Shown here piece after piece: positions 512 through 12,121 of a stretch of DNA of 64,000 nt (positions are counted from its first letter, which is position 1; each line of letters begins with the position of its first letter). Origin of the DNA: an uncultured Christensenellaceae bacterium (GTDB taxonomy: Bacteria; Bacillota; Clostridia; Christensenellales; UBA3700). The notes beneath the pieces were generated by a model. That model saw nothing but the letters and a program-made list of their open reading frames with translations. It was not told where the DNA came from and did no database searches. Location of the stretch: NCBI GenBank assembly GCA_944380295.1, contig CALWHE010000006.1, positions 11,670-75,669 on the forward strand. Direction: 5' to 3'. Both the position numbers and the translations under genes were made by a program.

Positions 512-1930
512 TCATCTCCTCCTCTTTTTGATCAGCCGTTCCTTGTCCAGCTCTATCTGCGTTTTTTTGCGTGCGGGGCGCGCCGCCGCTTCCGGACGCG
601 ACATCAGATAATAGCGCAGCGCGTCCAAGGCGTGATCGTCCTTTTTCACGGGCGTATCGCCCGCGCCCCACCAATAGCTTTTGAATTCGCGTATCAGGTT
701 CACGCAGGTGGAAAAAATCTTCAATCTGCCGCTTTTGAGATATGAACGCACGCGCGCTATGCCGGAAAAGAGGTCTTTGTTCACCTTGGGCGAAAGCGCC
801 AAGCCGCGCTCGAAAAACAGCTCCGTCACGCTCCGCTCCGCCGCCAGCGTGCGCTGGTTGGCGGCGCTGTCTATCAGCCCTTCCAGCCTGCCGTCATGCC
901 CGCGCCGCCAATTCAGCCTGTCTGCCAGCGCGTTTATGCCCTGCACGTGTTCGTCTATGCCCAACCCGGCGGCATACCACTCCCCCGTGACATACACGTT
1001 GCCGTCCCAGTCCACGGCAAAAAACAGACACGCCAAAGGGTTATGCAAGCCCGGATCCACGCTCAGTTTGTCCTGCCATTCGGGCGGCACGTCAAAGGGC
1101 GGGATCACGTGCACGCTCTGCTCGAATTCCGGATACACCGCCCCTTCCGCCTCGGAAAACATGCCGAAGCGGCGGCTGAGCAGGCTTTTTTCGTCCAGCG
1201 CGCTGCTGAGCGCCGCCACTTCCTCTTTGTCCAGCCAGGGATTGTCCGCCCACTGCATGTGGATGTGCCACACTTCCCCGTCCGCGGCGGAGTTGAGAAA
1301 GATCTTGTCATAAACCCACGTCAGTCCTTTGAGCGGGGTCATGGTGCCCCAGATGTCCCCCTTTTTGTCCAGCACGCGCATGCGGCATTCTTCATAGATG
1401 TCGCACGGCGGCTCCTCGTCGAACCACACCCAGTCCAAAGACGCGCCCTGGAATTTTTCTCTGCCCTGGTCGCAGCTTTTGAAGGATATGCGCGAAAGCC
1501 CGCCGAAGACGTTGCGCACCAAAAGATAATCGATCACGCCGCGCTCGGGCGAACTTTTTCTGCCCTCGCACATCACCACGTCCGCGATCCACTCCGGGCG
1601 CAGATAAGAGAGTATTTTGGCTTGCGCCACATCACGCTGCACCTCGAAGGAGAGCGAAACCACCCAGCCCTGGCTGTTCGGGCGGTTGGGACGGAACGGG
1701 TGGATCCCGCGCGCCGCCCACACCGCTTCCACCGCGCCGCACTCCGTTTTGCCGCTGCGGTTGCCGCCGAACACCCAGCGGTTGCGTTTGAGGCATTTGT
1801 GGAAAGCCATCTGCTTGGCGTGCACGCGCTCTACGTTGTATTCGCTCAATCTGCCCGGTGCGGCACGGCGTTTTTGCTCCCCCTCTATCGCCAAAATGCG
1901 CAGCAGGAGTTGTTTTTCCCTCTCGTCCAT
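512..1930 (-). CDS. terL: Phage terminase large subunit, apparently orphan
   Basis: Walker A GGNRSGKTE and Walker B-like WVWFDEE, with terminase-like N-terminal ATPase and C-terminal nuclease layout. I prefer ATG 1930, preceded by GGTGGAGGG, over the TTG at 1969 used by the ORF track. Confidence 0.85.
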   Translation of the reverse strand: MDEREKQLLLRILAIEGEQKRRAAPGRLSEYNVERVHAKQMAFHKCLKRNRWVFGGNRSGKTECGAVEAVWAARGIHPFRPNRPNSQGWVVSLSFEVQRDVAQAKILSYLRPEWIADVVMCEGRKSSPERGVIDYLLVRNVFGGLSRISFKSCDQGREKFQGASLDWVWFDEEPPCDIYEECRMRVLDKKGDIWGTMTPLKGLTWVYDKIFLNSAADGEVWHIHMQWADNPWLDKEEVAALSSALDEKSLLSRRFGMFSEAEGAVYPEFEQSVHVIPPFDVPPEWQDKLSVDPGLHNPLACLFFAVDWDGNVYVTGEWYAAGLGIDEHVQGINALADRLNWRRGHDGRLEGLIDSAANQRTLAAERSVTELFFERGLALSPKVNKDLFSGIARVRSYLKSGRLKIFSTCVNLIREFKSYWWGAGDTPVKKDDHALDALRYYLMSRPEAAARPARKKTQIELDKERLIKKRRR

Positions 1931-2039
1931 CTCTGCCCTCCACCTCCGCCTCGCCGCCGCGGCGGACAAGTTATCTCATCAAGCGGCAAAATTTTTCTTT
2001 TTTTGCTTTATTTTCCCCGCACAAGCGTGTATAATTAAA

Positions 2040-3981: not shown

Positions 3982-4059
3982 CTCTTCTCCTTTGCCGCAC
4001 GGCGGCTTTATCGGTTTGGTTTTTTTGCTATATGTTCAAAGCGCCTGCCGGCGCATTCC

Positions 4060-4540
4060 CCTTGCGGCTTTTGCCCTGCCGCGACCGGCATGCGGATAAG
4101 CGCTCCCCGGCGCAAGTCTTGTCTTACTTGCGGCAGAACGGTTTGCCACCCACGCGCTCCCCCTGCGGCTTTTGCCCTGCCGCGACCGGCATGCGGATAA
4201 GCGCTCCCCGGTGCAAGTCCGCTTATTTGCGGCAGGACGGCTTGCCACCCGCGCGCGCCCCCTGCGGCTTTTGCCCTGCCGCGACCGGCATGCGGATAAG
4301 CGCTCCCCGGCGCAAGTCTTGTCTTACTTGCGGCAGGACGGCTTGCCACCCGTGCGCCCCCTGCGGCTTTTGCCTGATGTCACCGGCATGCGGATAAGCG
4401 CTCCCCGGCGCAAGTCTTGTCTTACTTGCGGCAGGACGGCTTGCCACCCGTGCGCCCCCTGCGGCTTTTGCCCTGCCGCGACCGGCATGCGGATAAGCGC
4501 TCCCTGGTGCAAGTCTTGTCTTACTTGCAGCGTTCGGGCA
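4060..4540. repeat. Tandem array, about 98 bp x 5
   Basis: Unit ccctgcggcttttgccctgccgcgaccggcatgcggataagcgctccccggcgcaagtcttgtcttacttgcggcaggacggcttgccaccc... starts at about 4060, 4162, 4260, 4358 and 4456. Internal hairpin CGCAAGT n8 ACTTGCG. Confidence 0.9.
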
Positions 4541-4771: not shown

Positions 4772-4944
4772 CATTTTTCTCAAATTTATCGCACTTCAAC
4801 GCAATATGTATGTCATATTAAGTGAAAATCATGCGAACATACGGTAAAATCATCGAATGATTTTATTATGTTATGTTTTATATGTATCGCCGCTCCTGTC
4901 CCTTTTCCGCCGCCCTGCCGCCTCTTCATTTGCTTTTTTGCCGT

Positions 4945-5205
4945 TCAGCCGCCCTTCTCCGTCTGTTGCGCCGCTCCTGCCGTTGCGCATTATGCCGCCC
5001 GCCCTGCCGCTTGCTCTTTATCGCCGCCCTTCTCCGTCCGCTTGCGCTATCCCTGCCGTTGCGCATTATACCGCCCGTCCTGCCGCCTGCTCTTCTCCGC
5101 CGCCCTTCTCCGTCCGATTGCGCTATCCCTGCCCGTTGCGCATTATACCGCCCGCTCTTCTCCGCCGTTCCGCCACTTCTGTTTTTATCCGCCGCGCCGC
5201 ATTGT
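4945..5205. repeat. Degenerate tandem repeat, about 76 bp x 3-4, pyrimidine-rich on the plus strand
   Basis: Recurring gccgcccttctccgtc..gcgct.tccctgccgttgcgcattataccgcccg.cctgccgc. The frame-changing period explains the three overlapping spurious ORFs listed here. Confidence 0.8.
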
Positions 5206-5293
5206 CCGCCATTTTTCTCTTCCTGCCGCCTGTCCGTTCGGCTTTTTTGCCTCAACGCTTTGCCCGCGCGCGATTTTGTGTTATAATGATCTT

Positions 5294-6355
5294 ATGTTGA
5301 AAAGCGGCGAATTGCAAGTTAAAGATTTTTCCGTGTCATACTTCGGTTACGGACAAAAGGTGCGCGGCGTGGAATTTTCACTCCGAGAAGGCGAAGTGAT
5401 GTGCCTTTTGGGCGAGGAAGGCTGCGGCAAAACTTCACTCATGCGCGGGCTTGCCGGCTTGGAAGAGGTTGGCGGCAGCGTGACTTTGGGCGGAGTTGAC
5501 TTTTTGCGCCTGCCGCTCAAAGAACGCGAAGTGTGTTATACCTTCGGCGCGGACAGCTTGGACAAAAAAAAGACGGTGGCGCAAAACATAGTCAAGCCGC
5601 TGGTGCTGCGCGGCGCGGACGAGCGCTATATCAAACAGCGCCTGCAATATGCCGCCGAGCTGATGGACTTGGAGAACATCTTGCCGGAAAAGGTCAAGGG
5701 TCTGCCGCCTTATTATTTGGCAAAAACAATTTTGGCGCGCGCCTTTGTGCGCCCCACCGATCTGCTTTTATTGGACGATCTGCCCGCGCAGCTCTCCTAT
5801 TCCCAGCGCGAGCGGGTGTTCAACCGCATGCGCCTTGCCTGCGCCCGGGCGGGCGGACGGATCATATATGCCACCCAGCGCCCGGAAGAGGCGGAAGGCT
5901 TTCCGCACAAGGTGGGCGTGATGAGCGAAGGCGCCCTTGTCCAATGCGCGCCCATGCGCGATATATACAAATTCCCCGCTCATAGGGCGGCTGCCGAGAT
6001 ATTCAAACGCGACTTCACCCTGCTTCCCGCCACCGCGCGGCTGAACGGCGAATGGCTGGTGGAAGCGTGCGGGAGCAAGCTGCCCTGCCCGCCCCTGCTC
6101 AACAAGATCTATGACGGCAGGCAGGTCATCGCCTGCGTGCGCCGCGAGGACGTGAGCGTGGGCGGCGGCATTACCGCCAAAGTGCTGGGCGCATACGACT
6201 GCGGCAGAGAGCGCTTTTTGCGCCTGGGCGTGCCCGGCGGCATTATCTATTGCAATGCCGAAGCGCCCGTCGGTTCGGAAATATCCGTTTCCGTCAGCCG
6301 CGCCGCCTTTGTCTTTGACGCCGCCTCCGGCTATAACATCGCCGCGCGCGACTGA
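5294..6355 (+). CDS. MalK/UgpC-like ABC ATPase with degenerate catalytic motifs and a TOBE-like C-terminus; orphan
   Basis: Walker A GEEGCGKTS is present. LPPYY replaces the LSGGQ signature, Walker B reads LLLLDDL with no catalytic Glu, and ATQR replaces the H-loop. No permease or binding-protein gene is adjacent. ATG 5294 lies 6 nt after TATAAT. Confidence 0.75.
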   Translation: MLKSGELQVKDFSVSYFGYGQKVRGVEFSLREGEVMCLLGEEGCGKTSLMRGLAGLEEVGGSVTLGGVDFLRLPLKEREVCYTFGADSLDKKKTVAQNIVKPLVLRGADERYIKQRLQYAAELMDLENILPEKVKGLPPYYLAKTILARAFVRPTDLLLLDDLPAQLSYSQRERVFNRMRLACARAGGRIIYATQRPEEAEGFPHKVGVMSEGALVQCAPMRDIYKFPAHRAAAEIFKRDFTLLPATARLNGEWLVEACGSKLPCPPLLNKIYDGRQVIACVRREDVSVGGGITAKVLGAYDCGRERFLRLGVPGGIIYCNAEAPVGSEISVSVSRAAFVFDAASGYNIAARD

Positions 6356-6419
6356 AAAGCGCCCGTATCCGCCCGCGCCGCAAGCGCTCTTTTCTCCGCC
6401 CCGCCCTTTCCGCTCGCTC

Positions 6420-6555
6420 GAACCGCCGCTGCCGGCACAACTTTCCCCACTCCCCCGCACCGCCGCTGCCGGCACAACTTTTCCCGCTCTTCCGAACGCC
6501 GCTGCCGGCGCAATTTTCCGCTCACCCGAATCGCCGCTGCCGGCACAACGCTTTG
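6420..6555. repeat. Short tandem repeat, about 34-37 bp x 4
   Basis: Core cgccgctgccggcacaactt recurs at about 6424, 6461, 6498 and 6532. Confidence 0.75.
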
Positions 6556-6590
6556 TGCGGCGCGCCCCTTCAAGCTCCGTCCGCCCCGGA

Positions 6591-6710
6591 ATTTTATAAA
6601 GTCCGCTTTATAAAACTTGCGTTTTTGACGATTTTATAAAGTCTGCTTTACAAAACTTGTATTTTTACCGATTTTATAAAGTCTACTTTACAAAATTCTT
6701 GACATCGCCC
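6591..6710 (+). promoter_or_regulatory. Three 40-bp tandem units, each with an AT-rich palindrome (TTTTATAAAG n4 CTTTATAAAA) plus a -35-like hexamer
   Basis: Units at 6591..6630, 6631..6670 and 6671..about 6710. The first palindrome is perfect with 10-bp arms, and the others have 1-2 changes. The last unit ends in the real -35. Confidence 0.7.
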
Positions 6711-6728
6711 CCGCCGCTGTGCTATAAT
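6699..6728 (+). promoter_or_regulatory. Sigma-A-type promoter of the DUF4143 ATPase gene
   Basis: TTGACA (6699..6704), 18-nt spacer, TATAAT (6723..6728), then GGAGG RBS and ATG 6746. Confidence 0.7.
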
Positions 6729-6745
6729 CGTAAGCGGAGGCAACC

Positions 6746-7975
6746 ATGATAATACGCAATAAATATCTGCAAAAGATACTTCCTTTTATCGATAAACCGG
6801 TCATCAAGGTCATCGTGGGCATCAGGCGCTGCGGTAAAACGGTTTTACTTTCTCAAATCAAAGAACTGGTGCAAAATTCGGGCGTGGAAGCGGAGCGGAT
6901 CGTGGAGCTGAACTTTGAATCATTTGCCAGCGAACCCTTCAAGACCGCCAAGGCGCTTTACGACCATATCAGGCAAAAAAGCGCAAAGCAAAACGGTAAA
7001 AAGCTATATCTGTTTTTAGACGAGATCCAGGAAGTGCCCCAATGGCAAAAAGCGATCGATTCCCTTTTTGTGGACATAGCTTGCGATATTTATATCACCG
7101 GTTCCAACTCCAACTTGCTCTCCGGCGAGCTTGCCACCTATATTTCCGGCAGATACGTGCACTTTGACGTATACCCTTTTTCTTTTGCCGAGAGCGTGGA
7201 ATATTCCGCACAGCTGGGGCGCGGCAAGAGCACGGAAGAGCTTTTTGACGAATATCTGCAACTGGGCGGACTGCCGCAGCGGTTCTTATTTGAAGACAAA
7301 AGCGCCGTCCGCACTTATTTGTCCGACATCTTCGACACTGTGGTGATAAAGGATATTTTATTGCGCGGCAAGATAGAAAACCCCGACCTCTTGCGCAGGC
7401 TGACGGCGTTTTTACTGGACAACGTGGGCAACACGTTTTCCGCAAGTTCCGTCCGCGGCAAATTGGCAAGCGAGGGCGTAAAAACCAGCGTGCCCACATT
7501 AATGAATTATATCGCCGCCATTAAAAACGCCATGATAATCAACGCCGCTCCGCGCTACGACATAAAGGGGAAAGCGCTGCTTTCCACGGGAGAAAAATAT
7601 TACGCCGCCGATCTGGGACTGCGCAACATCGTAAAAAGCTCCGATATGGTGGATCTGAGCAAACTTTACGAAAATGCGGTGTTCAACGAAATGCTCTCCC
7701 GCGGCTGGGAAGTGTGCGTGGGCAAGGAAGGCGAGCGCGAAGTGGATCTGATCTGCGTGAAAGACGGCAAAAAAGTCTATATCCAGGTGACATATCTGCT
7801 GGCGGATAAAGCCGTTACGGAGCGCGAATTCCGCCCCCTGCGCGAAATAGACGACAACTTCCCCAAATATGTGATAAGCGGCGACAGGCACGACCTTTCC
7901 GCGGGCGGTATCATCCACAAAAACATCATAACTTTCCTCACGGAAGACCGGGCGGACGCCGGCGCGCTGTGGTAA
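6746..7975 (+). CDS. AAA+ ATPase with a DUF4143-type C-terminal nuclease-like domain
   Basis: Walker A GIRRCGKT and Walker B LFLDEIQ. C-terminal E..EVDLICV...YIQVTY is a PD-(D/E)xK-like motif. Family-typical N-terminus (MIIRNKYL..I...KVI.G.RRCGKT). The 5' part is visibly lower in GC than its neighbours. Confidence 0.85.
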   Translation: MIIRNKYLQKILPFIDKPVIKVIVGIRRCGKTVLLSQIKELVQNSGVEAERIVELNFESFASEPFKTAKALYDHIRQKSAKQNGKKLYLFLDEIQEVPQWQKAIDSLFVDIACDIYITGSNSNLLSGELATYISGRYVHFDVYPFSFAESVEYSAQLGRGKSTEELFDEYLQLGGLPQRFLFEDKSAVRTYLSDIFDTVVIKDILLRGKIENPDLLRRLTAFLLDNVGNTFSASSVRGKLASEGVKTSVPTLMNYIAAIKNAMIINAAPRYDIKGKALLSTGEKYYAADLGLRNIVKSSDMVDLSKLYENAVFNEMLSRGWEVCVGKEGEREVDLICVKDGKKVYIQVTYLLADKAVTEREFRPLREIDDNFPKYVISGDRHDLSAGGIIHKNIITFLTEDRADAGALW

Positions 7976-8005
7976 AAAATTTTCCCGCAAATCCTGTCGT
8001 CGGGC

Positions 8006-8035
8006 TTGACATCGTCCCCGCCGCTGCGCTATCAT
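8006..8035 (+). promoter_or_regulatory. Promoter of the riboswitch-thiT unit, a near copy of the 6699..6728 promoter
   Basis: TTGACA (8006..8011), 18-nt spacer, TATCAT (8030..8035). About 28 of 31 positions are identical to cttgacatcgcccccgccgctgtgctataat at 6698. Confidence 0.6.
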
Positions 8036-8160
8036 ATCAGCGGCTGGGGGTGCCTCCGAGGAGGCTGAGAGAGTCCCTTTGAACTTGGTCAAGGTAATTC
8101 TTGCGAAAGGAAGCAAAATCGGAAATGTTTTCTTAAAGTTCCTTCAGCCGAAGGAGTTTT
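8036..8160 (+). ncRNA. TPP (THI-box) riboswitch with expression platform
   Basis: ctgggggtgcc..ggCTGAGAgagtccctttGAACttGgtCaaggTAATtcttGCGaaAGGAAgc matches the THI-box core. Downstream hairpin TCCTTC agcc GAAGGA plus T7 sequesters the GGAG RBS just before ATG 8164 of a thiamine transporter. Confidence 0.85.
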
Positions 8161-8163
8161 TTT

Positions 8164-9300
8164 ATGTTCAACGCTTTGTTATGCGCCGCCGAGTATGTGA
8201 ATTTTTTCAACTTCGATTCCCTGCTCGGCACCACCGTGTGCGTGGGTCTTATCCTGATGGGCGCGGCAATACTTGCCAACCTCATCGTGTTTTTCGCCGC
8301 CCGCAGTAAATTTAAGCTCTCCGTGCTTGTGAGCGTGCTGCTCGTGCTGCTTTACCTGATCGTGGTCATCATTCTCAATATCCGCGACACGGCAAAAGAC
8401 GGCGGCTTTGAGTCGGGCAACACCGGTATGAGCGAGGAAGACGAAAACGGCATCGTCATATTCAACACCTCAAACGCCGTGTGGATCTCCGTGGCGGTGA
8501 TCGTGGTATTCGGCGCGCTCATCGCCCTGCTGCTCATCGACCGTAAAAAAGTTTCGCCGCGCGCCCACACCCTGGCCGTGGTTTACGCCGCGCTCTCCGT
8601 GGCGCTGGGCACGGGACTTTCTTACCTGAAAATGTTCGACGCCCCTTACGGCGGCTCCATCACCCTCTTCGGCTTGCTGCCCATCGCCCTCTATTCCTAT
8701 ATGTTCGGCGTGCGCCGCGGCACGCTGGCGGGCTTTATCTACGGGCTTTTGCAGCTGTTGCAGGGACCTAACATCCTGCACCCCGCGCAATTCTTCCTGG
8801 ACTATATCATCCCCTTTGCCGTGGTGGGCGCCTGCGGCGGCGTTTTCCGCCCGCTTACGGAGCGCTCCAAGCTCTCCCCCGTCCTCAAAGGCGTGGTGGG
8901 ACTTTCAAGCGGCATTGTGCTGGGCATTTTGCTGCGCTATCTCTTCCACGTCATCTCCGGCGCGGTCTTCTTCGGCGAATACGCGGGCGAATACGGCTTT
9001 GACAACGCCTGGGCTTACTCCGCCGCTTACAACGCCCTCTACGTGTTCCCCGACGGCGCCATCTGCCTCTTCGGCGGACTGCTGCTCATGCTCAGCTCTT
9101 CCTTCCGCGGACAGACTGACAGGGTGACGGCGGCGTTCAGAAAGAGCGCGGCAAAGCCCGCCTTTGCGGCGCAGACGGCAGGAGCGGAAGCTCCCGCGCA
9201 GGAAAACGCGCCCGCCGCACAGGCGCAGGACAACGCACAGCCCGCGCAAGAGGCGCAGGAAAACGCCGCCGCAGAAGATCGGGATCGGAACGCGCGCTGA
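8164..9300 (+). CDS. thiT: Thiamine transporter ThiT (ECF S-component) with an extra N-terminal TM region and a low-complexity C-terminal tail
   Basis: Residues about 145-300 match ThiT/YuaJ-type sequence (YGGSITL, LDYIIPF, FFGEYA, AYN..Y..P). About 140 extra N-terminal residues with TM helices. Ala/Gln/Glu-rich tail. TPP riboswitch upstream. Confidence 0.8.
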   Translation: MFNALLCAAEYVNFFNFDSLLGTTVCVGLILMGAAILANLIVFFAARSKFKLSVLVSVLLVLLYLIVVIILNIRDTAKDGGFESGNTGMSEEDENGIVIFNTSNAVWISVAVIVVFGALIALLLIDRKKVSPRAHTLAVVYAALSVALGTGLSYLKMFDAPYGGSITLFGLLPIALYSYMFGVRRGTLAGFIYGLLQLLQGPNILHPAQFFLDYIIPFAVVGACGGVFRPLTERSKLSPVLKGVVGLSSGIVLGILLRYLFHVISGAVFFGEYAGEYGFDNAWAYSAAYNALYVFPDGAICLFGGLLLMLSSSFRGQTDRVTAAFRKSAAKPAFAAQTAGAEAPAQENAPAAQAQDNAQPAQEAQENAAAEDRDRNAR

Positions 9301-9496
9301 GAGCAAACCGCCGGCAAAACGCCCAACGCAGTCTGAGCGCGGCACAAAAAATCGCCAAGGCAAAATGACCGCCGGCAAAACGACCGCCATTGTCAAGGCA
9401 AAACGACCGCCGGCAAATAACCAAACCGCGCCCCGCCAACCTTTCCGGCTTGCGGGGCGCATATCTTTTTTATACCTCTTGACTTAGCCGCCGTTT

Positions 9497-9542
9497 TTCG
9501 GCTGATTTAATATCAGATGTTAAATCAGCCGAAAGTTTTTTT
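9497..9542 (+). terminator. Rho-independent terminator downstream of thiT
   Basis: 14-bp stem TTCGGCTGATTTAA / TTAAATCAGCCGAA, 9-nt loop, then a T-run. Confidence 0.8.
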
Positions 9543-9640
9543 GCAATGTTTTTCCGCAAATTCGCCGCACTTTTTTAGCGATTTTCGGCGATTTTTCTTT
9601 TACGGAAAATGCTTTGTATATGTTTATTATTTTGATTTTT

Positions 9641-9770
9641 CGGCAAGTTGGCGGGATTTTGTTCGGCAAGTTGGCGGGATTTTGTTCGGCAAGTTGGCGG
9701 GATTTCGTTCGGCAAGTTGGCGTGATTTCGTTCGGCAAGTTGGCGGGATTTCGTTCGGCAAGTCGGCAAA
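9641..9770. repeat. 23-bp tandem repeat, five full copies plus a partial sixth
   Basis: CGGCAAGTTGGCGGGATTT(T/C)GTT at 9641, 9664, 9687, 9710 and 9733, with a partial copy at 9756. Confidence 0.9.
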
Positions 9771-9875
9771 GGCGCGCTTTGTTTTGGCGGCGGCGCGCGG
9801 CGGGCGAAAAATTCGCGCGGGCAAAGCGTTGCCGTTTATTTGTGTTTTTTTCTTTTGCGTGTTATAATCGTTAGT

Positions 9876-10679
9876 ATGGAAATAGGCATATCGACGGCTT
9901 CTTATTTTCCGCGCCTGGTGACGGAAGACGCCATGGAGCAAGTGGCTCTTGCGGGCGCCAAGGTGAGCGAGGTGTTTTTTGCCACCCACAGCGAGTATAC
10001 GCGCGAGTTCGCCGCCGAGGTGAAAAAGCGCGCCGACGCGGGCGGAGTGCGCATAAATTCCGTGCATGCGCTGACAAATCAATTCGAGCCGGAGCTGTTC
10101 GGCAAGGGGCTGCGGGCGCATGCGGACGCCCTCACCACTTTTACCCGCGTGTGCGAAGCGGGCAAGGTGCTGGGCGCGAAGTATTACGTGCTGCACGGCG
10201 CCACCCGTCTGAAACCGGCGGTCAAATATGTGTTCGATTACGAATTTCTCGCCTCGCGCGTGAACAAACTGTGCGACATCGCGCAAAGCCACGGTATCAC
10301 GCTCACATACGAAAACGTGCATTGGGCATACTTTTCCGTGCCGGAATACTTTGAAAAGCTCGCGCCGCTCTGTCCCCGTCTGGGCGCCACTCTGGACGTG
10401 AAGCAAGCCATGCAGTCGCGCCTCGATTACGCGGATTTTCTGCGCGTGATGGGCAGCCGGCTGAAAACGGTGCACCTGTGCAACTGGACGGAGAGCGGCA
10501 AACTGGTCATGCCCCACTCAAAAGAAGGCGTGCTCGATTTCAAGCTGCTTTTCAAGCGCCTGCGCGACGCGGGCTTTGACGGCGCGTGCCTGATCGAGGT
10601 CTATTCCTCGTGCTATAACGATTTTGCGGAAATAGCGCGCAGCCTTGATTATTTGAACGACATAAAAACAGACCTGTAA
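9876..10679 (+). CDS. Sugar phosphate isomerase/epimerase (xylose-isomerase-like TIM barrel)
   Basis: AP_endonuc_2-like pattern (SVH, YYVLHG, LTYENVH, acidic metal ligands). ATG 9876 lies 7 nt after TGTTATAAT. Confidence 0.8.
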   Translation: MEIGISTASYFPRLVTEDAMEQVALAGAKVSEVFFATHSEYTREFAAEVKKRADAGGVRINSVHALTNQFEPELFGKGLRAHADALTTFTRVCEAGKVLGAKYYVLHGATRLKPAVKYVFDYEFLASRVNKLCDIAQSHGITLTYENVHWAYFSVPEYFEKLAPLCPRLGATLDVKQAMQSRLDYADFLRVMGSRLKTVHLCNWTESGKLVMPHSKEGVLDFKLLFKRLRDAGFDGACLIEVYSSCYNDFAEIARSLDYLNDIKTDL

Positions 10680-10699
10680 GGTCTATTGGAGGAACATAT

Positions 10700-12121
10700 A
10701 TGCGTTACAGCAAAAAAGAGATGAAGATCCGCGTGGATTACAATAACATGATGTCCGCCGTCCTGGGCAGGGGTCGCGGCATTGCCGCCGCAGACGTGGA
10801 AAGCGTGGCGGCGCGCGCGGACAAGGCGTTCAACGCCGTGGCGGCAAAGTCCGGCATCGGCATGATGGGCTGGACCAAACTTGCCGGCGGACAGGCGGAC
10901 GTGGTGGAAGAGATAATTGCCACCGCCAAGCAGGTGCGCCGCGACTGCGAATATTTTGTGGTGCTGGGCATAGGCGGCAGCGCGCTGGGTCCCATTGCGG
11001 CGTTCAGAGCCATCAAGCACTTGCACTATAACGACTTGAAAAAGAGCAAACGCCGCGGTCCCAAGTTTTATGTGGAAGACAACGTGGATCCCGAGCGCAT
11101 GGCGGCGCTTTTGGACGTTATCGAACCGGAAAAGACCATTTTCAACGTGATAACCAAATCCGGCTCCACTTCCGAAACCATGACCCAGTATCTTATCGTG
11201 AACGACATACTCAAAAAGGTCCTGGGCGATAAAGCCAAAGACCACATCATCACCACCACTTCCCGCACCAAGGGCAACCTGATCAAGCTGGCGCAAAAGC
11301 ACGGTTACAAGACCTTTTATATCCCGGACGGCGTGGGCGGCAGATTCAGCGAGCTGTGCCCCGTGGGACTTTTGCCCGCCGCCGTGCTGGGCATAGACAT
11401 CCGCGGCTTGCTCGCGGGCGCCAAGTTCATGCAGGAGCTGTGCGAAAACCCCAACATGAAGCGCAACCCCGCCCTGATGAGCGCCGCGCTCATGTATATC
11501 GCCATGACCAAATACGGCAAAAACATCTCCGTGATGATGCCTTACGCAGACAGCCTGCAATTCATCGCGGACTGGTATGCGCAGCTGTGGGCGGAAAGCC
11601 TGGGCAAAAACAAGACGCTCGACGGCAAAGACTGCAACGTGGGTCAGACCCCCGTCAAGGCGTTGGGCGTGACCGACCAGCACTCGCAGGTGCAGCTTTA
11701 CACGGAAGGACCTTTCGACAAGGTGATCACCTTCATCGGCGTGGACGCATACCGCACCGACGTGACCATACCCGGCGGCTGCGAGGAGATCCCGGACGTG
11801 AACTTCCTCTCCGGACACACGATGAGCGAACTTATCAAAGCCGAACAAAAAGCCACCGAATACGCCGTGACCAAGGCGGGCAAGATGAATTACACCATCA
11901 CCCTGCCCGTGGTGAACGAATTCACGCTGGGACAGCTTTTGATGCTGTTCATGATGGAAACGGCATATTGCGGCGAATTGCTTGGCATAGACGCCTTCAA
12001 CCAGCCGGGCGTGGAAGAGGGCAAAAACGCCACTTACGCGCTTTTGGGCAGGAACGGTTACGAAGAGAAGAAAAAGGAGCTGGACGCGGCGCCGGCGAAA
12101 CAGACAAAATACATAATATAA
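10700..12121 (+). CDS. pgi: Glucose-6-phosphate isomerase
   Basis: Bacterial-type PGI motifs (VLGIGGSALGP, ITKSGSTSET, GGRFS, QHSQ.QL). GGAGG RBS. Confidence 0.95.
   Translation: MRYSKKEMKIRVDYNNMMSAVLGRGRGIAAADVESVAARADKAFNAVAAKSGIGMMGWTKLAGGQADVVEEIIATAKQVRRDCEYFVVLGIGGSALGPIAAFRAIKHLHYNDLKKSKRRGPKFYVEDNVDPERMAALLDVIEPEKTIFNVITKSGSTSETMTQYLIVNDILKKVLGDKAKDHIITTTSRTKGNLIKLAQKHGYKTFYIPDGVGGRFSELCPVGLLPAAVLGIDIRGLLAGAKFMQELCENPNMKRNPALMSAALMYIAMTKYGKNISVMMPYADSLQFIADWYAQLWAESLGKNKTLDGKDCNVGQTPVKALGVTDQHSQVQLYTEGPFDKVITFIGVDAYRTDVTIPGGCEEIPDVNFLSGHTMSELIKAEQKATEYAVTKAGKMNYTITLPVVNEFTLGQLLMLFMMETAYCGELLGIDAFNQPGVEEGKNATYALLGRNGYEEKKKELDAAPAKQTKYII

Follow-up and report, generated by a model that had tools for sequence, protein, structure and literature searches.

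What do three AT-rich palindromes, spaced at exactly 40 bp, do in front of an uncharacterized ATPase gene that directly precedes a gene for thiamine transport, and to which of the two genes do they belong? The question is raised by a locus in a 64,000-nucleotide stretch of the genome of an uncultured Christensenellaceae bacterium (GCA_944380295.1, contig CALWHE010000006.1, positions 11,670 to 75,669 of the forward strand), here called the window, in which an AAA_14/DUF4143 ATPase gene (gene 1) follows the palindromes and is flanked by two near-identical promoters, the second of which serves thiT. From sequence comparison across orthologs, paralogs and more distant relatives we consider it probable that the array is a private self-operator of the ATPase gene downstream of it. 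The palindromes, promoters and genes were all found at the positions given in the initial annotation of this DNA, and the elements upstream of and including gene 1 are as follows.

6591..6697, plus strand: array of three 40-bp units starting at 6591, 6631 and 6671, each a 24-bp palindrome with a T-rich linker; the third unit continues into the promoter
6592..6615, no strand: palindrome 1, TTTTATAAAG TCCG CTTTATAAAA, 10-bp arms perfect
6632..6655, no strand: palindrome 2, TTTTATAAAG TCTG CTTTACAAAA
6672..6695, no strand: palindrome 3, TTTTATAAAG TCTA CTTTACAAAA, stopping 3 bp short of the -35 hexamer
6698..6728, plus strand: ATPase promoter cassette, CTTGACA-18-TATAAT, 12/12 and TG-extended; left copy of a 31-bp direct repeat
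6736..6740, plus strand: GGAGG ribosome-binding site, read from the sequence, 5 nt upstream of the ATG
6746..7975, plus strand: AAA_14/DUF4143 ATPase, 409 aa, a member of PADLOC type PDC-S01, with AAA+ module (residues 1-160), lid (163-207), winged helix (213-287) and PD-(D/E)xK-like fold (290-400)

The palindrome consensus TTTTATAAAG-N4-CTTTAYAAAA gave six strand-wise matches, compared to 0.00 expected from shuffles of the window, and Tandem Repeats Finder described the array as 2.6 copies with a period of 40, 89% matches and no indels. The linker of each unit contains the T-tract GTTTTT, and the CTTG of each unit aligns with the CTTGACA of the true -35 box. A -35-like hexamer, previously assigned to every unit, is good only in unit 1 (TTGACG, 6625-6630), with just TTTACC in unit 2. 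The centre of palindrome 3 lies approximately 51 bp upstream of the transcription start, as placed from the -10 position, and the location of the GGAGG 5 nt before the ATG leaves the ATPase with a leader of only about 10-12 nt. The GC content is 0.42-0.49 over positions 6550-7300, a stretch that takes in the array together with the gene's 5' half, compared to 0.64-0.67 upstream and 0.61-0.66 in thiT; the low GC described earlier for the 5' part of the gene is thus real, but the whole gene, and not that part alone, is below the genome GC.

When up to three mismatches were allowed, no further copy of the 40-bp unit or its palindrome was found in the 1.75-Mb, 27-contig genome. The 31-bp promoter cassette likewise had no third match in the window (up to three mismatches) or in the whole genome (up to six). 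As unit, palindrome and cassette are all unique, a dispersed repeat, named in the initial annotation as the finding that would undermine its reading, is ruled out. An RNA hairpin or terminator is ruled out as well: the stems are AU-only, a T-run is lacking and a terminator scan gave no hit, the low folding z-score of the array reflecting nothing other than the palindromes. Matches to the palindrome numbered 49 in genome contigs (596 Gb of genomes) and one in viral contigs, all single sites in AT-rich DNA and never arrays; these are consistent with chance and carry no information.

To decide between the two candidate owners of the array, the thiT side of the locus has to be considered, which comprises three elements.

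8005..8035, plus strand: thiT promoter, CTTGACA-18-TATCAT, 11/12; right copy of the 31-bp direct repeat
8036..8128, plus strand: thiamine pyrophosphate (TPP) riboswitch aptamer (Rfam RF00059, 62.9 bits)
8164..9300, plus strand: ThiT thiamine transporter S-component with a genus-conserved N-terminal extension

Comparison of the thiT locus, proposed in the initial annotation as a check, found the ATPase gene directly upstream of thiT in none of six relatives from the same genus or family, nor at the locus of the closest ortholog outside the species (L099, 86% identity). In the six relatives thiT is served by a TTGACA promoter and a TPP riboswitch of its own, and in two of them the open reading frame (ORF) upstream of thiT resembles a Fic-family gene by eye. 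L099 has the same neighbourhood in another order, with thiT followed by an ABC gene and then by the ATPase gene in the opposite orientation. This ortholog is preceded by two units in which the arms and the 40-bp period are as in the window (TTTTATAAARTCCACTTTACAAAA). The array units are approximately 91% identical between the two loci and the coding DNA 81%, with a diverged promoter spacer and leader; conservation is higher in the palindrome arms than in linkers and spacer, and homology stops about 10 codons ahead of the ATPase stop codon. As the palindromes have been kept with the ortholog at another position, it is the ATPase gene, not thiT, that owns the array. The presence of the ortholog one gene away in the closest other species furthermore points to a local rearrangement rather than to insertion from outside. 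Array, promoter and gene together form a portable, AT-richer single-gene unit. A 72% ortholog lies within a conjugation gene cluster and has the related word TTTTATAT..TAAATAAAA once upstream and once over the -10 element.

Palindromes of their own are also found at the promoters of the four other paralogs in the genome (on contigs C17, C7, C1 and C19) and of approximately 75 relatives. The C17 paralog has TTTTGTCGAC..GTCGACAAAA three times at its promoter, the C7 paralog has AATTGCGAAACG..CGTTTCGCAATT, the C1 paralog a different dyad, and the C19 paralog ACGATAAAAT..ATTATCGT overlapping the -10 element. The inner palindrome bases differ among the five paralogs and each word is private to its gene; the outer TTTT/AAAA tracts are common to many clades. 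In the C7 paralog (G000 contig C7:32700-34310, L003), TTGCGAAA..TTTCGCAA occurs in the upstream array and again about 20-100 bp past the stop codon, so that some family members are flanked by their own sites at both ends.

The relatives were sampled as 80 fetched loci with 41-68% protein identity. In 19 of 59 non-redundant loci the 160 bp upstream contained a 9-mer that recurs four or more times on either strand, compared to three when the same test was applied downstream, one inside the gene and two in shuffled upstream sequence. Strongly repeated units (a self-match of at least 22/26) were present in 17 of 75 non-redundant loci. All 17 of these arrays have a period of 40, 41 or 42 bp (lags of 18-69 were tested), across protein identities of 42-100% and with differing words. 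Many relatives have an extra site or half-site in the promoter spacer or over the -10 element. The neighbouring genes vary by locus and include those for thiamine transport, sugar metabolism and type IV secretion as well as serine recombinase/relaxase elements; the ATPase gene alone accompanies the sites throughout, with no regulator gene moving along with them. The earlier idea of a multi-site operator has in this way gained comparative support, from the palindromes kept with the ortholog, the separate palindromes of paralogs and relatives, and the 40-42 bp period.

The same observations bear on two other explanations of the array. Instead of the ATPase, another host factor might bind the palindromes, for instance a global regulator or a nucleoid-associated protein that silences AT-rich foreign DNA. 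Array and gene are indeed AT-richer than their surroundings, and the outer tracts shared by many clades could be read by a general AT-tract binder, but private inner bases in five paralogs of one 1.75-Mb genome, variable neighbours without an accompanying regulator gene, and a strict period that points to a dedicated oligomer make such a factor improbable. Alternatively, the phased AT-rich units could act without any specific protein, as an UP element or as intrinsically curved DNA boosting a strong promoter in a GC-rich genome. The A/T tracts directly upstream of the -35 box, the T5 tract in every linker and the full consensus match of the promoter would suit this explanation. An UP element, however, requires neither dyad symmetry nor paralog-specific inner bases and could not act from inside the spacer or over the -10 element, where words are found in relatives, and the arms are conserved better than the linkers and the spacer; we consider this explanation very unlikely.

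In the gene product, the AAA_14 domain (PF13173) was matched with 108.3 bits at residues 20-149 (Pfam gathering cut-off 27) and DUF4143 (PF13635) with 49.4 bits at residues 202-348 (cut-off 28.1), and the PADLOC profile PDLC04787 (PDC-S01) matched near full length (residues 1-401, E 1.3e-147, 490 bits). The Walker A (GIRRCGKT) and Walker B (LFLDEIQ) motifs are intact and conserved in an alignment of 24 members. The AlphaFold2 model (predicted local distance difference test 88, predicted template modelling score 0.89) places two further domains in the C-terminal half.

7382..7606, plus strand: predicted winged helix-turn-helix, residues 213-287, with recognition helix 249-261 (VPTLMNYIAAIKNA) and beta wing 265-287; AlphaFold2 model
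7613..7945, plus strand: PD-(D/E)xK-like domain with E309, E332-x-D334 and then Q347-V-T349 in place of E-x-K; 24-member alignment

A Foldseek search with the model gave the archaeal ATPase PABY2304 as top PDB match (2qen, E 4e-10), followed by DNA-bound Orc1/Cdc6 (2qby, 2v1u) and ORC subunits (E approximately 1e-6 to 1e-7); the matches also included the STAND switches Apaf-1, NLRs and Avs5. A sequence search of the PDB with the ATPase returned no match at E <= 0.01, Orc1/Cdc6 included. The PD-(D/E)xK-like fold is confidently predicted, and the annotation of such a domain with no assigned function is correct according to both the model and the papers searched, which treat DUF4143 as no more than a PD-(D/E)xK family whose function is unknown. 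The canonical catalytic motif (D ... (D/E)-x-K) is absent from gene 1 in the 24-member alignment. The third nuclease motif reads Q-V-[A/C/T/S] throughout the superclade of gene 1, and the missing canonical lysine suggests for part of the family a possible role as DNA-binding ATPases instead of nucleases.

PDC-S01 has the form of a single gene, with a patchy distribution and several paralogs per genome. A check of context, as proposed at the outset, placed some close homologs in mobile elements; gene 1 itself is among PADLOC's defence candidates. PDC-S01 is reported to rank fourth in abundance among candidate 'defence' types, with approximately 29,500 bacterial and 10,000 archaeal copies, and awaits validation (PMC12988326). 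Gene 1 resembles this group (COG1373) in carrying both Pfam domains and in its full-length profile match, and its subfamily differs in having Q-V-[TAC] at the canonical E-x-K.

On the basis of the model, the winged helix would be the reader of the palindromes. The class of palindrome follows the clade of the protein as well as the N-terminal residues of the predicted recognition helix: helices starting with TSVPT go with TTTTATAAAG, TTVAT with TTTTATAT, TS[VA]DT with TTTTGTCGAC, TTVET with TTTTGTCGG/CAG, TTVNT with TTTTGTATT and V[AS]PET with TATAAGTTATAT. A simple code relating residue 250 to half-site base 5 is not claimed, as glutamate at the P250 column goes with both TTTTGTCGG and TATAAG.

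The following mechanism would join these observations. The winged helix (residues 213-287) would bind each TTTTATAAAG/CTTTAYAAAA palindrome as a dimer. A spacing of 40 bp corresponds to about four helical turns and would thus put the three sites on the same side of the DNA, with the T-tract linkers between them favouring bending. The AAA+ modules of adjacent dimers could then join into a higher-order, probably nucleotide-dependent complex, and the six half-sites would fit a hexamer made of three dimers. Such a complex would abut the -35 box and set the transcription of its own gene, most likely by repression. We infer the binding by the ATPase, the stoichiometry and the sign of regulation from the sequences; sites over the -10 element in relatives argue for repression.

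Several observations weigh against a self-operator of this kind. Clean multi-unit arrays are limited to the 17 of 75 loci given above, and many loci instead have one upstream site and one at the promoter. The co-variation of site and helix follows clades and therefore represents few independent events. Tandem structure alone is weak evidence here since the genome is rich in intergenic tandem arrays; Tandem Repeats Finder listed 26 rows in the 64-kb window, with periods of 17 to 298 bp for the other arrays. Finally, the core promoter is free of sites both in the window and in L099, which makes the sign less certain, and a palindrome centred near -51 could also activate or be an AT-rich UP element.

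Phased autoregulatory operators are found in lambda cI at OR1-3, in the C-proteins and C-boxes of restriction-modification systems and in the DnaA boxes at the dnaA promoter. The ATPase array resembles these in its multiple dyad sites at the gene's own promoter, in the -10-overlapping site of relatives and, by analogy, in cooperative occupancy. It differs in that a 46-kDa AAA+ ATPase bearing a nuclease fold, and not a small helix-turn-helix protein, is the putative binder, in the spacing of four helical turns, and in the absence of a core-promoter site in the window. Plasmid iterons and their Rep proteins are similar in that tandem, even repeats adjoin the gene of the presumed binder; iterons, however, are direct repeats of approximately 17-22 bp at replication origins, whereas the palindromes of the ATPase array recur every 40 bp at a promoter on the chromosome, where a Rep gene and origin features are lacking. 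The predicted protein shares AAA+ module, lid and C-terminal winged helix with Orc1/Cdc6 and PABY2304 (Foldseek E 4e-10 to 1e-6). As orc1/cdc6 genes usually adjoin their origin recognition boxes, so does gene 1 adjoin repeated dyad sites that its own product would bind. The sequence identity is 12-17% (12-13% in the structural alignments with Orc1/Cdc6), the ATPase has the additional PD-(D/E)xK-like domain, and its sites differ from origin recognition boxes in lying at a promoter with a 40-42 bp period. Five paralogs with private sites in a 1.75-Mb genome argue against an origin role, and the GC-skew shows no turn at the locus.

How the module came to lie in front of thiT is a separate question, to which the two promoters provide part of the answer. 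That they form direct repeats of about 28/31 flanking the ATPase gene was borne out: the copies are identical at 28 of 31 positions, and at 17 of the 19 outside both hexamers, which indicates copying rather than convergence of two sigma-70 promoters. Two other strains of the species also have the duplication in slightly different form, such as with TATGAT in the ATPase copy, and the thiT promoter copy of one strain matches the ATPase promoter copy of the window at 29/31. The duplication is absent from L099 and from genome G007, where the thiT promoter agrees with that of the window in just the -35, the -10 and the start of the riboswitch, and it thus arose in this lineage, along with the rearrangement that placed the module before thiT. 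The thiT promoter of the window matches those of relatives in the -35, the -10 and the downstream bases, though not in the spacer. The ATPase promoter copy shares TTGACATYG and GTGCTA with the promoter of the L099 ortholog, the thiT copy sits in native-looking thiT flanks, and comparison of the two spacers with L099 gave approximately 55% either way and hence no direction of copying.

The initial annotation had proposed that the ATPase gene was inserted between the thiT promoter and its riboswitch. This proposal finds no support on either side of the gene, as the DNA to the left of the first promoter is the ATPase's own conserved array and not thiT upstream DNA, and the second promoter fronts an intact thiT promoter-riboswitch unit with -35, -10 and riboswitch start as in relatives. 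A local rearrangement in this species would instead have put the module directly upstream of that unit, and during or after it one promoter core would have been copied onto the other. The ATPase stop codon is 29 bp from the thiT promoter copy (8005), and as the scan detected no terminator between the ATPase gene and this promoter, ATPase transcripts probably read through into the riboswitch.

A contig of a sister strain, approximately 98% identical to window positions 4992-11594 (L101), bears a second duplication. Between thiT and an AP_endonuc_2 gene it carries a 407-aa DUF4143 gene (gene 2; region L101:4403-5895), with 163.6 bits to PF13635, a stronger match than that of gene 1, and a canonical EIK nuclease motif; its clade keeps D...E-I-K. 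A direct repeat of approximately 106 bp brackets gene 2 and combines the terminator of thiT with CTTGACT and the palindrome TTTCGGCTGATTTAA-N9-TTAAATCAGCCGAAA. TATAAT in its left copy is replaced by TGATTT in the right one. The window contains this segment once, outside the unit of gene 1.

9429..9534, plus strand: single 106-bp segment (thiT terminator, CTTGACT, palindrome with 15-bp arms), present in two copies in L101

The palindrome of the window (9495-9535, with perfect 15-bp arms) also scores as a terminator-like hairpin, and the segment can be read as a relic or orphan operator. No close homolog of gene 2 was found in the genome. Orthologs of gene 2 elsewhere have the same palindrome over the -10 element, and one of them lies approximately 2 kb downstream of thiT in another genus (G009). 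Loss of gene 2 from the window lineage by recombination between the repeats would be a simpler reading than gain. A terminator-like hairpin after an unrelated gene (G000 contig C9:40340-40385) has arms as in the gene-2-type palindrome (TTCGGCTGATTT..AAATCAGCCGAA) and another centre.

The two brackets invite the explanation that array and duplicated promoters are scars of mobility, the ATPase gene being a cassette that moves when repeated promoter or terminator segments recombine, and the repeats being without a regulatory role. Such movement would agree with the 31-bp repeat around gene 1, with the 106-bp repeat around gene 2 and the single copy left where that gene is missing, with duplicated terminators on both sides at two further loci (L103 and L141), with the close homologs in mobile elements and with the lower GC of the ATPase gene. 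Brackets are, however, no hallmark of the family: direct repeats of at least 18 bp between upstream and downstream flanks occurred in 2 of 64 family loci, similar to the controls (2 of 59 and 1 of 57). The palindrome array moreover lies outside the bracket and is conserved in orthologs without one, and mobility would account for the duplication and not for phased palindromes, leaving this as a most improbable explanation of the array.

The gene-2 palindrome also occurs apart from any cognate gene. Its 37-bp form, TTCGGCTGATTTAA-N9-TTAAATCAGCCGAA with 28 specified bases, was found exactly in eight unrelated Firmicutes and Bacteroidota genomes (L195-L202), and at the two annotated loci (L196:4949-4985 and L198:4742-4778) it is located between a MobL relaxase gene and the Toprim/DUF3991 and type IV coupling protein genes of a conjugative element. 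None of the eight loci has a cognate DUF4143 ATPase nearby, and four of the five genomes checked have none anywhere. Collections of plasmids and phages contained no match.

These copies bear on the possibility that the array is the working substrate or assembly platform of the ATPase, similar to an Orc1/origin recognition box or iteron-like loading site that stores or arms an oligomer, with a word perhaps matched in foreign DNA and autoregulation as a by-product. Besides the exact copies, which follow a MobL gene at the two annotated loci, the architecture shared with Orc1/Cdc6 and STAND switches, the palindromes on both sides of the C7 paralog and of gene 2, and the listing of the family as a defence candidate (PMC12988326) speak for such a role. 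The gene-1 palindrome, on the other hand, has no meaningful match in viral contigs or other genomes, its subfamily lacks the canonical ExK nuclease motif, one PDC-S01 representative assayed in E. coli B did not figure among the four candidates that gave protection against T4, T5 or T7 (bioRxiv 10.1101/2024.09.26.614923), and it is the promoter position that is the constant feature of the sites. We therefore regard a platform as unlikely. A related and equally doubtful reading, drawn from the exact recurrence of the gene-2 palindrome in unrelated genomes, next to MobL at the two annotated loci and without cognate ATPase in four of the five genomes checked, is that PDC-S01 proteins are sequence-specific DNA sentinels. 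Each paralog would then have a private palindrome, the promoter array would be the single 'self' copy that parks an ATP-dependent oligomer of three dimers on six half-sites and throttles expression, and the true target would be that word where it occurs on mobile DNA entering the cell. The private self-operator is still the reading we prefer.

Several further features surround the locus, beginning with an array directly upstream of the palindromes.

6406..6549, plus strand: four GC-rich tandem units of approximately 37 bp, unique in the genome

The L099 ATPase ortholog has no such units upstream, and they are probably one of the genome's many intergenic tandem arrays. The word CCGCCGCTGC, common to the promoter spacers and the 37-bp units, is not meaningful, with 44 occurrences in the genome. 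GC-rich intergenic tandem arrays are unusually numerous in the window (4058-4528, 4948-5155, 6406-6549 and elsewhere, with 99-, 76- and 37-bp units). The ABC ATPase ORF at 4868-6355 (495 aa) probably starts at the ATG at 5295, after TATAAT at 5282-5287; what precedes 5295 in it consists of a pyrimidine-rich tandem array of 76-bp units, and the homolog in L099 is 357 aa long. Downstream, an array of 23-bp units (9639-9767, 5.6 copies of TTCGGCAAGTTGGCGGGATTTCG, 96% matches) precedes the AP_endonuc_2 gene, and as a related array is found 3' of thiT in L099 (4131-4237), it travels with the thiT 3' flank. The N-terminal extension of ThiT (window 8164-8580) comprises approximately 135 aa ahead of the Thia_YuaJ domain and is genus-wide (L007-L012, 46-72% identity over the full length). 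A ATTATGTGAGATTATGTGCAA-like word repeat is located upstream of the thiT promoter in L099 (5720-5900), with a similar one upstream of a gene-2-type ATPase (L106, genome G005), and looks like a dispersed repeat family of the genus. A phage terminase large subunit gene (512-1969, minus strand; Terminase_6N and Terminase_6C) lies approximately 4.8 kb upstream of the ATPase locus, and a prophage or remnant may border the ATPase region.

No published description of promoter arrays for PDC-S01/DUF4143 was found in the literature searched, and the design thus appears to be an undescribed mode of regulation in a very common uncharacterized family, with a putative operator that is well supported by the comparison of sequences. 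Particular to this locus are the strict 40-42 bp period, the non-canonical nuclease motif, and the gain or loss of a neighbouring paralog between strains, with an orphan palindrome left behind. For annotation, AT-rich arrays of this type would be assigned to the ATPase gene rather than to thiT or another neighbour, and orphan copies of the palindrome would mark the sites of lost genes. For the family as a whole, a private array at each gene provides a concrete predicted DNA ligand for every PDC-S01 paralog, and the fixed 40-42 bp geometry would constrain the oligomer that binds it.

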